Shown here: in pieces, positions 35,027-39,159 of the stretch | How positions within the stretch are numbered: the first letter of the stretch is position 1 | Layout of the letters: the number at the start of each line of letters is the position of its first letter | NCBI GenBank assembly: GCA_009392005.1 | Contig: VFHL01000005.1 | Location: 49,643 to 113,642, forward strand | Length of the DNA: 64,000 bases | Direction of reading: 5' to 3' | Source: SAR202 cluster bacterium | GTDB taxonomy: Bacteria > Chloroflexota > Dehalococcoidia > UBA6926 > VFHL01 | Notes under the pieces: generated by a model | Told to the model about the DNA's origin: nothing | Databases searched by the model: none | What the model saw: only the letters and a program-made list of their open reading frames with translations | Program-made: the position numbers and the translations under genes

Positions 35027-35281
35027 CTCTCAATCTCCCTTCTTAGACGTGCTTCATATGTGAATATCAGTTGGTTCTTCCTTGATTCTAACGCAAAGCA
35101 ATTAATGAATTACATGTAAATGGCTTTTTGGTGGTCGTGATTTTCAAAATGAGTAGTTATCTAAGTTGCGTTAAATCAAGGCGAATAACGAAGGTGTTAT
35201 ACTCAACCTGTTATTATGTCAATGGTGCATTTTCCACTTTAAATAGGGTCCACTTTCTAATTTGTATTGGAAGACAAAAAG

Positions 35282-35839
35282 ATGAAGAACCCTTCAATTC
35301 GCGAGAAAAACATTTTGAATCGTAGGGTGCTGGTACTTAATCAGGACTACATGCCACTGAACGTGTGTCAAACCCGGCGGGCTCTGCTGCTTTTGTTTTC
35401 AGGTAAAGCAGAAGTTGTTCAAAATGATCATAGCGATCTCCACGGTCCAGCAGTGACGATAAAAGCACCATCTGTAATTAGGTTGGGGCGCTTCGTCAAG
35501 AGGAAAAATGTCGCTAGAAAACTCACTCGCAGAGAGATTTTCTTCCGAGATGAAAACACATGCCAATACTGTGGTAAGGCCTCTCATGAGTTAACCCTTG
35601 ATCATGTTTATCCGCGACACCGAGGAGGATTGAAGAGTTGGAGTAATATGGTCAGCGCATGTGTTCAATGCAACTTTCGCAAAGCGGGGAGGACACCAGA
35701 AGAGGCGGGTATGAAATTACTCAACGTTCCACGACAACCTTCGTTAAATCCCTACTATCCTTTTTATCGTTACTTAGGAGACAGGCCTGAGTGGCGGTAC
35801 TTTTTCCCGGTAGAGATGAAGGATTCTGTATCTCGATAA
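35282..35839 (+). CDS. HNH endonuclease family protein
   Basis: VLVLN, RD..TCQYCG, LTLDHV.P, W.N.V.ACVQCN.RK. Confidence 0.9.
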   Translation: MKNPSIREKNILNRRVLVLNQDYMPLNVCQTRRALLLLFSGKAEVVQNDHSDLHGPAVTIKAPSVIRLGRFVKRKNVARKLTRREIFFRDENTCQYCGKASHELTLDHVYPRHRGGLKSWSNMVSACVQCNFRKAGRTPEEAGMKLLNVPRQPSLNPYYPFYRYLGDRPEWRYFFPVEMKDSVSR

Positions 35840-36016: not shown

Positions 36017-36508
36017 ATGACATCTCAACCGGAGACTCTTGTTAACCAAGAGATGCTTGACAAAAAGGACCAATGGAGCGAGCCGAATGTTTCGCCTCCC
36101 GTTTCAGTGTCAGATATTCGCAAATGGGGTATAGCCGTTTATTGGCCAGATACACCCCCGCGTTTGTTCTGGGATGAGGAATATGCGAAGTCGACTCGTT
36201 ACGGAGGGATTGTTGCACCACATGACTTCAATCCGTTCGCGTGGCCAGTAGAGCGTGAAGTGCCAGCTGCGCGCGCAACAGCTGCTGGTGGAGGCGTTGG
36301 TACACGTGGCATGAATGGTGGCCAGACAGATTTTTATGAGAAGGCGATGCGTCCTGGTGACGTTGTAAGCACATCTAGCGCTTTAGTTGATTGGTACGAA
36401 CGTAATGGGAAGTTGGGACTGACATTGTTCAGCGTCACTGAAGTTCGGTGGACCAATCAGAATGATGAAATAATCAAGAAGCGACATTCAATAAGTATTC
36501 GGTATTAA
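36017..36508 (+). CDS. MaoC-like hotdog dehydratase, N-terminal type
   Basis: DEEYAK.TRYGGIVAP, NGG, RPGDV and NQNDE. Confidence 0.82.
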   Translation: MTSQPETLVNQEMLDKKDQWSEPNVSPPVSVSDIRKWGIAVYWPDTPPRLFWDEEYAKSTRYGGIVAPHDFNPFAWPVEREVPAARATAAGGGVGTRGMNGGQTDFYEKAMRPGDVVSTSSALVDWYERNGKLGLTLFSVTEVRWTNQNDEIIKKRHSISIRY

Positions 36509-36559
36509 ATCAGTTGATAAGTCACAAGATTCATTACCGACAACAAAAGGAGTATTCGC

Positions 36560-37015
36560 ATGGCGTATAACGTTTACTACGAAGATGTGGAAGTTGGACA
36601 AGAGATCCCTGAATGGTCTCGGCAGACCGATTTCATGCATTGGAACCGTTACGCAGCAATAAATGATGAATTTGTATACATTCACATGGATGATGAAGCT
36701 GGGCGAGCCGCGATGAATGAGCAAGGAGCCTTTGGAATGGGTAACTTGCGATTCGCCTATTTTCATAATGCTTTGCGTGATTGGGCCGGAGACGAGGCCT
36801 ATGTAACGAAATTAGGATGCCAGTTCAGAGCCATTAATCAAAAGAATGATGTCTTGACGGTTAAGGGAACTGTTACTGCAAAACGTGAAGAAGATGGTAT
36901 GTATTTGGTGGATATAGAGATGAATGTAGAAAATCAGGAGGGTCAAAAGACCGCTCCTGGAGAAGCCACTATAGCTTTGCCTTCAAAGAGTGGTAACCAT
37001 AACCTTCCTGGTTAG
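36560..37015 (+). CDS. MaoC-like dehydratase
   Basis: YYEDVEVGQEIP, YAA..D...IHMDDE; paired with the previous hotdog gene. Confidence 0.82.
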   Translation: MAYNVYYEDVEVGQEIPEWSRQTDFMHWNRYAAINDEFVYIHMDDEAGRAAMNEQGAFGMGNLRFAYFHNALRDWAGDEAYVTKLGCQFRAINQKNDVLTVKGTVTAKREEDGMYLVDIEMNVENQEGQKTAPGEATIALPSKSGNHNLPG

Positions 37016-37153: not shown

Positions 37154-37228
37154 CGGGGTGTAGCCCAGCGGTAGGGCGCCTGCTTTGGGAGCAGGAAGTC
37201 GGAGGTTCGATCCCTCTCACCCCGACCA
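37154..37228 (+). tRNA. tRNA-Pro(TGG)
   Basis: CGGGGTG...; anticodon arm CCTGC-TTTGGGA-GCAGG; GTTCGATC; CCA. Confidence 0.97.
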
Positions 37229-37287
37229 CTGCTTTCTGTTACAATGGGCCACGTTAACTAGATAACTTAAGGAGCCACTTATTTAGT

Positions 37288-37407
37288 ATGTATTTAATGT
37301 TCAGCCTGAATGTGATTAAAGAAGCGATTACTGACTGTTGTTGTCGAAACACGCATACTGATATGAGGTGTTCAAACAGTCTTGTGGAGGCAATGCCAAT
37401 GAAGTAA
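37288..37407 (+). CDS. Putative Cys-rich leader peptide MYLMFSLNVIKEAITDCCCRNTHTDMRCSNSLVEAMPMK
   Basis: AAGGAG at 37269-37274; ATG at 37288 (alternative 37297); TGTTGTTGT at 37336-37344; TAA at 37405-37407. Confidence 0.65.
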   Translation: MYLMFSLNVIKEAITDCCCRNTHTDMRCSNSLVEAMPMK

Positions 37408-37447
37408 ACATTAAAAATTTCGTGGCTGGATAGTTTGAATAGACCTC
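37365..37447 (+). promoter_or_regulatory. Putative antiterminator helix
   Basis: GAGGT-GTTCAAAC (37365-37377) can pair with GTTTGAAT-AG-ACCTC (37433-37447), which includes the terminator's 5' arm. Confidence 0.6.
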
Positions 37448-37466
37448 GATCGAGGTCTTTTTTTTT
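37441..37466 (+). terminator. Intrinsic terminator (attenuator) upstream of the peroxiredoxin
   Basis: AGACCTC-GATC-GAGGTCT followed by a run of 8 T, 27 nt before the start codon. Confidence 0.85.
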
Positions 37467-37493
37467 GAAGTTTAGTTTTATTAGGAGGATAAT

Positions 37494-38129
37494 ATGTCTG
37501 TCAAACTAGGAGATGAAGCGCCGAATTTTACTGCCAATACGACCGAAGGGGAAATAGATTTCCATTCTTGGCTGGGAGAATCTTGGGGGATTCTAATGTC
37601 ACATCCAGCCGATTTCACACCAGTTTGCACAACCGAGCTTGGCAAAGTTGCCTCGCTATCTGATGAATTTGGAAAGAGAAATACTAAGGCCATAGCAATT
37701 AGTGTTGATCCTTTAGATAAACATTCTGGGTGGATAGATGACATTAATGAGACACAGAACACGCAGGTGAATTTCCCGCTCATAGCTGACCCTGAGCGCC
37801 AAATCGCACAGCTTTACGATATGATTCATCCCAATGCTGATAATACCCTGACTGTAAGGACTTTGTTTGTTATAGGGCCAGATAAGAAGGTTAAATTGAG
37901 TCTTACTTATCCAGCGTCCACCGGACGTAATTTTCAAGAAGTATTGAGGGTACTGGATTCATTGCAACTTACAGCGAACCATAAGGTTGCGACGCCAGTT
38001 GATTGGGAACAAGGCCAGGATTGTGTAGTTCTTCCCGCAATTAAAACAGAAGATATACCAGGAATATTCCCGAAGGGACATAAAGAGATTAAACCGTACT
38101 TGAGGACAACGCCTCAGCCCAATCTTTGA
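37494..38129 (+). CDS. 1-Cys peroxiredoxin (Prx6 / LsfA-like)
   Basis: SHPADFTPVCTTE, YPASTGRNF and ATPVDW; RBS AGGAGG. Confidence 0.95.
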   Translation: MSVKLGDEAPNFTANTTEGEIDFHSWLGESWGILMSHPADFTPVCTTELGKVASLSDEFGKRNTKAIAISVDPLDKHSGWIDDINETQNTQVNFPLIADPERQIAQLYDMIHPNADNTLTVRTLFVIGPDKKVKLSLTYPASTGRNFQEVLRVLDSLQLTANHKVATPVDWEQGQDCVVLPAIKTEDIPGIFPKGHKEIKPYLRTTPQPNL

Positions 38130-38523: not shown

Positions 38524-39159
38524 TTATTTTTTCTTGGCGTTGGGGTTCTTAGCACCACCCCAAGCGAAATCACTACATAAGTCAACGGCCGCGTCTATCT
38601 TGCTTTGTGACGCTAATCCCACTAGATCCTGAACTAATGGCTTCATCTTCGCACGTGCATCTACGGTAAAGTCGGGATCTGGCACATTGAATCCTTGGTC
38701 TCGCAGGCACTGTGCAAACTCTAACAAGTTGTCTTGTGTTTCAATTGGGTCTTCCTTATCAATTTTTCCGGTAAATGTTGTATTTGCCAAAATAGGTACG
38801 CATGTATCAAGTGCCTTTCCGCTATCCTTTTTCTGTAAATCAAATCTAGGATCGTGGTTGAAACTCTCTTTGAGCTTCTCAAAATTTACGGTGCCATCAA
38901 CATTCAATTCTGGATCAGGGATGTTAAACCCTTTATTTCGCATACACTTTGTAAACTCAGTGACAACTTCTTCATCTGTTTTTACTTTAGCAGCCCTACC
39001 ATCCAATCGGCTGTTTGACGGCGACGTGACACCTATTTCCTCGGAATTATCGATCCTCGCAACTCCGCTATCAGATTCGTTTTTGCGAGAGCACGCAGAT
39101 AGTGAGAAAAGGATTGCAAGAATGGCGAAGCAAATAATTAGAGATGATGAATATCTCAT
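38524..39159 (-). CDS. Lipoprotein with two C(M/L)RxxGxxxPDP repeats
   Basis: Lipobox LSAC; EFTKCMRNKGFNIPDP and EFAQCLRDQGFNVPDP. Confidence 0.8.
   Translation of the reverse strand: MRYSSSLIICFAILAILFSLSACSRKNESDSGVARIDNSEEIGVTSPSNSRLDGRAAKVKTDEEVVTEFTKCMRNKGFNIPDPELNVDGTVNFEKLKESFNHDPRFDLQKKDSGKALDTCVPILANTTFTGKIDKEDPIETQDNLLEFAQCLRDQGFNVPDPDFTVDARAKMKPLVQDLVGLASQSKIDAAVDLCSDFAWGGAKNPNAKKK

Follow-up and report, generated by a model that had tools for sequence, protein, structure and literature searches.

The classical trp, his, leu, thr and pheA attenuators of enterobacteria combine a short open reading frame (ORF) holding clustered codons for one amino acid with 1:2, 2:3 and 3:4 helices and a terminator, and to our knowledge nearly all known leader-peptide attenuators feed back on the synthesis or charging of the amino acid that they sense. 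The element described here departs from that rule. It lies in a stretch of 64,000 nucleotides (nt) from a SAR202 cluster bacterium (Chloroflexota, class Dehalococcoidia; assembly GCA_009392005.1, contig VFHL01000005.1, positions 49,643 to 113,642 of the forward strand; hereafter the window), where a small ORF (sORF) with three adjacent cysteine codons, followed by an intrinsic terminator, precedes a gene for a Prx6-type peroxiredoxin (Prx). The feature is real and conserved, and it is probably a trp-type ribosome-mediated transcription attenuator that reads the charging of tRNA-Cys and controls the Prx6 peroxiredoxin.

Several described systems approach this one from different sides, as far as the available parts of the respective sources go. 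In Rhodobacterales, uORFC-8-2 is a predicted attenuator found only before cysS, with two tandem Cys codons (about codons 14-15) in the first stem and a U-run terminator (PMC8632094). Poly-Cys leaderless sORFs of mycobacteria have been shown experimentally to be cysteine-responsive attenuators that work by ribosome pausing; they are translational, unmask a Shine-Dalgarno (SD) sequence, lack an intrinsic terminator and serve cysteine-metabolism operons, and the words peroxiredoxin, oxidative and thioredoxin are absent from the available part of that text (bioRxiv 10.1101/834739). Actinobacterial cys/cbs operons carry predicted Cys leader ORFs without terminator hairpins, for which Rho-dependent termination has been proposed (PMC1262725). 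On the side of the regulated gene, lsfA of Pseudomonas aeruginosa belongs to the genes that respond most strongly to sulfur starvation, rising more than 45-fold in RNA and 8-fold in protein (PMC12581299), and the PBC-28-3 motif found before ahpC-like genes is structured, abuts the start codon and is probably translational (PMC8632094). The mycobacterial cysteine sensors and the induction of LsfA by sulfur starvation had both been invoked as context in the initial annotation of the locus, and both are borne out by these sources (bioRxiv 10.1101/834739; PMC12581299). Full-text literature searches gave no Cys leader before a peroxiredoxin and no leader-peptide attenuation in Dehalococcoidia among the matches listed.

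Re-checking on the sequence confirmed where the initial annotation had placed the sORF, its three TGT codons, the terminator, the 13-base-pair (bp) antiterminator pairing and the Prx6 ATG. The sORF (37288-37407, +) possesses an ATG and a stop codon, comprises 39 codons including the start and is translated as MYLMFSLNVIKEAITDCCCRNTHTDMRCSNSLVEAMPMK; an SD-like box, AAGGAG (37270-37275, +), stands 12 nt 5' of the ATG at 37288. ATG 37297 and GTG 37312 are alternative in-frame starts, and the GTG-started version, MIKEAITDCCC..., is similar to the M[FI][KR]E[IV]T...CCC of relatives. The three adjacent Cys codons, TGT-TGT-TGT (37336-37344, +), form the proposed stall site, and a fourth Cys codon follows at 37369-37371; in the genome as a whole (1.6 Mb, 13 contigs) TGYTGYTGY occurs 253 times on both strands, or 7.9e-5 per nt. 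In the minimum-free-energy fold of the leader, segment 1 (37333-37357, +), which includes the Cys codons, is paired as the 5' strand of a 1:2 hairpin with segment 2 (37362-37381, +), its 3' strand. Segment 2 includes the antiterminator 5' strand, GAGGTGTTCAAAC (37365-37377), which can pair over 13 bp, with one G-U and a 2-nt bulge at 37441-37442, with segment 3 (37433-37447, +), and this antiterminator 3' strand overlaps the terminator 5' arm at 37441-37447. The intrinsic terminator (37441-37466, +) consists of a 7-bp stem with four G-C pairs and a 4-nt loop, GATC (hairpin 37441-37458), and a T-run that reaches 37466; 27 nt separate the end of the T-run from the ATG of the proposed regulated gene, which encodes the 211-amino-acid (aa) Prx6-type peroxiredoxin (37494-38129, +).

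Conservation in relatives, on which the initial annotation had made its proposal depend, is found. The Cys sORF, terminator and complementary segment (hereafter the module) also precede Prx6 in six other genomes of four other lineages, namely L032, L002, L003 and L004 (genus g4), L097 and L119, of which L174 is a metagenome duplicate; with the window they make up the seven loci referred to below. L032 and L097 came from a scan of species-representative genomes, L119 from a class-level search in which 60 of 401 genomes had a Prx6 match, and the metagenome scan yielded L174 only, with a Prx identical to that of L119. Within the window's own order (30 genomes) a Prx6 ortholog occurs in four, the window genome and the three g4 genomes, and all four carry the module. 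The three g4 genomes have a 22-codon ORF before Prx, MFKEITRMFCCCPVEISSGVIF, MIRAVTQVSCCCPVEISAGGIL or MIREITQLSYCCPVDISAGGIW, with a strong terminator, AAGCCCCGA...TCGGGGCTT followed by T6. L032, an uncultured Dehalococcoidia bacterium with a Prx identity of 84%, has a 52-codon ORF with CCCC and the terminator GGACCTC-AAAA-GAGGTCT followed by T8. L097, likewise an uncultured Dehalococcoidia bacterium (Prx identity 70%), has the ORF MSNTSLNLITTFSCACRTYNDRGQY and, 3' of it, a 9-bp hairpin whose T-run is interrupted, nevertheless classed as terminator-like by the terminator tool. In L119 (G288, same class; Prx identity 70%) the ORF has ...QCSCRILSLCGGEMRYWGFD, and a 10-bp terminator comes after it. 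Start and stop codons of the sORF are present in all seven loci, as is a terminator-like hairpin 46-53 nt 5' of the Prx start, while the Cys cluster reads CCC in the window, CCCC in L032, CCC, CCC and YCC in g4, CAC in L097 and CSC in L119. The sequence flanking the leader is different in each lineage, and the sequences are barely alignable.

When the Prx6 loci were screened with a uniform script, a terminator 15-90 nt upstream was found at 6 of 33 class-level loci, all six of which carry a C.?C sORF; the same script found a terminator at 0 of 78 Prx6 loci of other phyla and at 3 of 80 loci on metagenome contigs, one of the three (L174) accompanied by such an sORF. Owing to its interrupted T-run, L097 escaped the script. 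As a background, 13 of the 265 terminator-like sites of the window genome have a C.?C sORF ending no more than 75 nt upstream, from which chance co-occurrence in four independent lineages has a probability of 5.8e-6, and in five one of 2.8e-7. In a maximum-likelihood tree computed quickly from 47 Prx6 proteins, the genes with a leader fall into two well-supported clades, one uniting the window with L032 (support 99) and the other L097, L119/L174 and g4 (support 100). On this tree at least two state changes are needed, and a single origin of the leader may be compatible with it. The module is absent from the high-GC Dehalococcoidia Prx6 genes (L112-L118 and L120-L137). Two further candidates were set aside: at L173 a terminator-like site is accompanied by a RICCLKELS frame running from stop to stop, with no sORF qualifying under the uniform script, and L138 (G334), left uncounted, has a five-codon frame, ATG-TGC-TTG-TGT-TGA (MCLC), about 110 nt 5' of Prx6 and after a tRNA gene, with a GC-rich hairpin lacking a T-run downstream of the frame. 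The latter frame may be due to chance or may be a degenerate relative of the leader.

The alternative pairing recurs along with the codons. Its strength was assessed by comparing the segment between the Cys cluster and the terminator with the terminator 5' arm plus 8 nt, against 2000 dinucleotide shuffles of that segment. In the window the best duplex formed by the ORF tail with the region of the terminator 5' arm reaches -16.1 kcal/mol against a shuffle mean of -8.0 (p = 0.0025); the corresponding p values are 0.039 in L032, 0.008 in L002, 0.17 in L003, 0.32 in L004, 0.023 in L097 and 0.18 in L119, and Fisher's method over the five lineages, with the g4 median representing its three genomes, gives 2.8e-4. 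At all loci the best pairing partner belongs to the 3' portion of the sORF; in g4, L097 and L119 it touches or overlaps the stop codon, as in the classical trp geometry. Judged from the sequences, the partner changes in step with the terminator arm from one lineage to the next: GAGGT..TTCAAAC faces GTTTGAA..ACCTC in the window, GGGCCACAC faces GTGTGG.CC in L032, CGGGG or TGGGGTT faces CCCCG or AGCCCCG in g4, GGGGCC faces GGCCCC in L097, and GGGGGTT faces AACCCC in L119. In a MAFFT alignment of the window with L032, seven of the eight lower antiterminator pairs are kept, several of them changed on both sides, and the upper five are out of register in L032. Over the 13-pair helix 80.8% of cells in these two sequences are paired, versus 23-38% with the partner slid, and both-side changes occur at four pairs versus 0-1 in the slid controls, with 29 of 500 shuffles reaching the observed values; this covariation check covers two sequences only, one of which also supplied the structure. 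The g4 leaders additionally contain an 8-bp hairpin, CCGGTTGA...TCAGCCGG, immediately after the Cys codons.

Folding with a blocked ribosome footprint was used to follow the effect of ribosome position. The transcript was cut at the terminator loop, 28 nt were blocked round the last Cys codon or the stop codon, and the mean pairing probability of the terminator 5' arm at that point was recorded; as an equilibrium model of a kinetic process, this carries limited weight. With no ribosome, a ribosome at the Cys codons and a ribosome at the stop codon, respectively, the values are 0.30, 0.71 and 0.24 in the window, 0.39, 0.67 and 0.40 in L002, 0.44, 0.57 and 0.02 in L003, 0.50, 0.62 and 0.47 in L004, 0.73, 0.67 and 0.53 in L097, 0.69, 0.77 and 0.29 in L119, and 0.52, 0.55 and 0.80 in L032. 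Pairing of the arm is thus higher with the stalled ribosome than with the ribosome at the stop, the expected direction, in six of the seven loci.

These elements suggest the following course of events. With Cys-tRNA plentiful, the ribosome would pass the Cys codons, and in the short leaders, whose stop abuts segment 2, it would cover that segment; in the leaders of the window and L032 it would be segment 1, with its Cys codons, that recaptures segment 2. Once segment 2 is covered or recaptured, the 3:4 terminator would form and transcription would end at about 37466. With Cys-tRNA scarce, a ribosome stalled at 37336-37344 would occupy segment 1 with its footprint and melt the 1:2 hairpin, leaving segment 2 to pair with the emerging segment 3, so that no terminator would form and RNA polymerase would enter the Prx gene. 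The trp/his-type geometry ascribed to the locus in the initial annotation therefore stands for the overall layout, and not for its last detail, as a ribosome at the window's stop codon does not cover segment 2.

As to the signal, cysteine is the only reading frame enriched in every lineage; the Leu/Val readings of TGTTGTTGT are gone in the CAC and CSC leaders, and the leader peptides, 22 to 52 aa in length, are otherwise dissimilar. A further connection comes from the high-GC sister group, which lacks the leader and where a cysteine-synthase-family gene is found directly upstream of Prx6 on the same strand. The copy verified in L115 (421-1377, +) has the cysKM subfamily as its best match (261.7 bits, under the cut-off), and its C-terminal peptide is recognisable by eye across L112-L116 and in L118. 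This predicted neighbourhood of cysteine synthase and Prx6 is an independent link to cysteine. The window genome itself encodes one cysK/cysM-like gene (307.8 bits, below the cut-off; C2:186057) and two full-length cysS matches over the cut-off (G000:C11:21958-23307, +; G000:C4:133382-134755, -), and no cysE or serine acetyltransferase over the cut-off was found in it. The cysK-like gene directly follows a ThiF/MoeB-like reading frame, recognised by eye in the translation.

The initial annotation itself had named a competing possibility, that the hairpin only ends the tRNA-Pro transcript; the Cys ORF would then be there by chance and Prx would depend on an unrecognised promoter or on leaky read-through. 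Such an explanation can hardly be right, although the window taken by itself has features that suit it: there is no terminator between the end of tRNA-Pro (37228) and the hairpin, a promoter-like site, TTGAAG-N17-GATAAT (37465-37493), abuts the Prx ATG, and one RNA contig starts at 37487. Across lineages, however, the module goes with Prx6 and not with the upstream gene, which is tRNA-Pro in the window, a glutaredoxin-family gene in g4, and, at L032, L097 and L119, a gene on the opposite strand, which encodes an MFS-type protein in L032 and an aldo-keto-reductase-like protein in L119. Because the upstream gene is divergent in these last three, the terminator there can end only the sORF transcript, and the chance of a Cys sORF co-occurring in four or five lineages is in the range of 5.8e-6 to 2.8e-7 given above. 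A promoter between terminator and gene, which the initial annotation had likewise considered, was not found: the four relatives scanned (L097, L032, L119 and L004) show no promoter-like site on the plus strand there, and the window's 37465-37493 site ends next to the ATG, so that a start from it would fall inside the gene and cannot serve Prx. The interval from terminator to Prx contains an SD box only (AGGAGG, 37483-37488, +), and with no usable promoter after the terminator, Prx expression has to pass through it.

Two other explanations keep the sORF functional and shift its meaning from codons to peptide. It is unlikely that the nascent Cys-rich peptide is what is read, with copper or another metal, or an oxidant reacting with its thiols, as the signal in place of tRNA-Cys charging while the ribosome still controls the terminator. 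A precedent exists in the product of the CruR upstream ORF (uORF), which reads copper via a nascent CXXC and controls downstream transcription, but its architecture differs in that the effector relieves a stall and termination is Rho-dependent, according to the available part of the source (PMC9426467). A C-x-C-R pattern is common to three of the five lineages (CCCR, CACR, CSCR), and the regulated gene is a redox enzyme and not a cysteine gene, both of which would fit peptide sensing; yet the peptides have almost nothing in common beyond Cys, an arrest motif of the RAPP kind is absent, the spacing from Cys codons to stop varies from 10 to 24 codons, and the Cys codons sit about 20 nt 5' of segment 2, precisely where a stall on hungry codons would free that segment. 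The other explanation, distinctly improbable, takes the sORF product for a small Cys-rich protein with a function of its own, e.g., as a thiol partner or in metal binding, co-produced with Prx in a ratio set by a leaky terminator. In its favour, the sORF is always a direct neighbour of Prx and can share an RNA molecule with it, and within g4 the C-terminal PV[ED]IS[AS]G[GV]I is fairly conserved. Between lineages, on the other hand, neither length (22 to 52 aa) nor sequence is conserved save for the Cys codons, the 39-aa peptide of the window has no family match in NCBIfam, and the complementary segment 2 would be left unexplained. In the g4 hairpin, moreover, the loop is variable and the arms are conserved, with one G-C to A-U double change (L002), a pattern that speaks for RNA structure rather than for a constraint on the peptide.

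RNA-derived sequences offer a further view of the locus. Parts of the stretch are present in six metatranscriptome runs, four of which were aligned to the window. A contig of X1 (record 4; 363 nt, 0 mismatches, two extra T in the T-run) covers 37306-37666, and one of X3 (record 14; 0 mismatches) covers 37360-37506, both from one marine study; leader, terminator and Prx can thus lie on one read-through molecule. The X2 contig, from a poly(A) library, spans 37487-37819, with adapter-like loose letters before it and an untemplated A18 tail after it. The molecule is thus truncated within the coding sequence and probably represents a piece of Prx mRNA polyadenylated in the course of decay; the loose letters before 37487 resemble a template-switch oligo. 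Stretches without contig cover (e.g., 37248-37284) are uninformative, and contigs of the tRNA region were rejected as belonging to this organism, their mismatches and loose ends pointing to other organisms.

A number of observations weigh against attenuation by tRNA-Cys charging. The regulated gene is a peroxiredoxin and not a cysteine gene, the latter being the usual target for this attenuator family, if not a mechanistic requirement. No startable Cys sORF was found upstream of the cysK-like gene or of the first cysS copy, and a Cys-rich frame before the second cysS copy was rejected, having neither start codon nor terminator. Nor was a second convincing Cys leader found genome-wide: a scan requiring a terminator gave four hits, with only the Prx leader convincing and the layout incomplete in the others (an ORF in C2 before a long gene, MYQ...RCRC...; a 47-aa ORF in C6; and MGCACVR in C7, before a selD-like gene), and a scan without the terminator requirement returned 69 sORFs with adjacent Cys codons, a noise-like result. 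Such sORFs before other AhpC/TSA genes (C4 at 168741; C8, reverse strand, at 2714) were treated as chance because they lie upstream of or across good promoters (TGGTACAAT; TTGACA-N17-TATAAC) and have no terminator. The relatives are few, with the three g4 genomes closely related, and the Cys signal is reduced in some of them, with no more than two adjacent Cys codons in L004 and a C-x-C in place of a run in L097 and L119. At the level of structure, the antiterminator is individually non-significant at three of the seven loci (L003, L004 and L119), the masked fold is reversed in L032 (0.55 stalled against 0.80 at the stop), and the region 37229-37500 folds with z = -1.26, 22 of 200 shuffles folding equally well or better. 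With 26-30 nt between segment 2 and the stop codon downstream of it in the window and L032, a terminating ribosome does not mask the segment in the classical way at these two loci. Finally, the RNA contigs come from libraries able to carry DNA and attest to bridging only, with no bearing on ends, levels or regulation, and the 5' end of the X2 contig at 37487, inside the Prx SD box, could be an RNA 5' end.

Upstream of the leader, tRNA-Pro (anticodon UGG; 37154-37228, +) was identified by ARAGORN and by the Rfam tRNA model at 69.1 bits. It may be co-transcribed with the leader, and, from comparison with relatives, which have other upstream genes, it appears as a neighbour outside the conserved module. 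TGTTACAAT (37237-37245, +), picked out by eye and not called by the promoter consensus scan, is a possible extended -10 promoter of the leader transcript, to be compared with the TGGTACAAT present at another Prx gene of the same genome. In L097, TTGATC-N17-TACAAT (1188-1216) ends with its -10 box 6 nt 5' of the sORF ATG, and in the three g4 loci (L002, L003 and L004) TATAGT-N6-ATG stands just before the sORF start, so the transcripts of L097 and g4 may be leaderless mRNAs as in mycobacteria; the window sORF has an SD-like box instead of a start-adjacent -10 box. No Rfam family was found at gathering score on the window leader, in a scan with E-values up to 10, or anywhere in the loci of seven relatives.

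The peroxiredoxin has the Pfam domains AhpC-TSA (PF00578, E 2e-30) and 1-cysPrx_C (PF10417, E 5e-6), and its best NCBIfam model is the peroxiredoxin PRK13189 at 199.4 bits, under the cut-off of 211. The peroxidatic-Cys motif PVCTTE is invariant in all four aligned orthologs, as is a second cysteine, Cys177; with its AhpC/TSA fold, 1-cysPrx_C domain and PVCTTE motif, the protein is by sequence of the Prx6 type. Eight AhpC/TSA matches exist in the window genome, the Prx6 gene among them. Matches with a single in-frame TGA, which possibly represent selenoprotein peroxiredoxins, occur in this genome (G000:C6:131780-132148, +; G000:C13:45807-46178, -) and in many relatives, and a selD-like gene is present in C7 of the window genome. 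Just upstream of the leader in g4, a glutaredoxin-family ORF (PF00462, E 1.8e-10; L003 2375-2620, -; also in L002 and L004) has an in-frame TGA at the first Cys of its CxxC, reading UPSC; it is therefore a candidate selenocysteine glutaredoxin adjoining the leader-Prx6 module. In the window, the gene convergent with Prx (38527-39159, -) encodes a 211-aa protein with a lipoprotein-like N-terminus and a weak, sub-threshold match to COX17, a copper chaperone, at residues 63-80. On the other side, an HNH endonuclease-domain protein and then two small ORFs are found (35267-35839, +, and 36017-37015, +), the first of the small ORFs with a FAS1-like dehydratase domain and the second without a Pfam match.

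The physiology that follows from attenuation by tRNA-Cys charging would be one in which cells short of cysteine, likely their main low-molecular-weight thiol, raise enzymatic peroxide defence. By analogy, it would agree with the induction of LsfA, a Prx6 homolog, in sulfur-starved Pseudomonas, which reportedly proceeds via protein regulators. It is tempting to go one step further and suppose that the streamlined marine Dehalococcoidia have turned an amino-acid attenuator into a switch for redox and sulfur status, with tRNA-Cys charging as the sole input and Prx6 as the sole output in the genome, an extension that we put forward tentatively and regard as possible without favouring it. In such a switch tRNA-Cys charging would mirror reduced free cysteine, and an oxidised or depleted cysteine pool would directly induce peroxide defence, giving a one-gene 'Cys ribulon' without a protein regulator. 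A broader claim, that the genome is without peroxide-sensing regulators, is ruled out by its two Fur-family genes and one LysR-family gene.

Set beside the classical attenuators, the window's leader shares their clustered codons for a single amino acid, alternative helices and intrinsic terminator just before the regulated gene, and differs from them in sensing cysteine, in targeting an antioxidant enzyme, in belonging to Chloroflexota (class Dehalococcoidia) and, in the window and L032, in an sORF that continues 9-10 codons past segment 2. The mechanism and the sensing of cysteine by leaders are thus known already, whereas the phylum and the antioxidant output are new. If the proposal is true, sulfur and thiol status would be coupled to peroxide defence without a regulator, and the induction of 1-Cys peroxiredoxins by sulfur starvation, itself still unexplained, would have an independent molecular route. 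The element would also be a compact, portable RNA part of about 180 nt that could act as a cysteine-responsive switch, and it would illustrate how function may be assigned by comparison alone to unannotated sORFs of uncultured marine bacteria.

The cysteine leaders described elsewhere, so far as the available parts of the sources tell, each match a different portion of this arrangement. With uORFC-8-2 it shares tandem Cys codons in a uORF within a stem and a U-run terminator, but the target is Prx6 in Dehalococcoidia and not cysS in alphaproteobacteria (PMC8632094). With the mycobacterial poly-Cys sORFs it has in common consecutive Cys codons in an unannotated sORF, and it differs from them in having a terminator, in a Prx SD box that is not paired with the Cys tract in the folds, and in its peroxiredoxin target (bioRxiv 10.1101/834739). 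The actinobacterial Cys leaders resemble it as short ORFs with runs of Cys codons ahead of the regulated gene, although they lack terminator hairpins and their targets are cysteine biosynthesis genes (PMC1262725). On the peroxiredoxin side, PBC-28-3 is likewise a candidate cis-regulatory RNA before a peroxiredoxin gene, while the Cys uORF and terminator seen here are not mentioned for it in the available part of the source (PMC8632094). The proposed outcome comes closest to that of lsfA, in that low sulfur or cysteine supply would raise a 1-Cys peroxiredoxin in both; for lsfA the available part of the source describes neither leader peptide nor terminator (PMC12581299), whereas in these Dehalococcoidia both stand directly before the gene.

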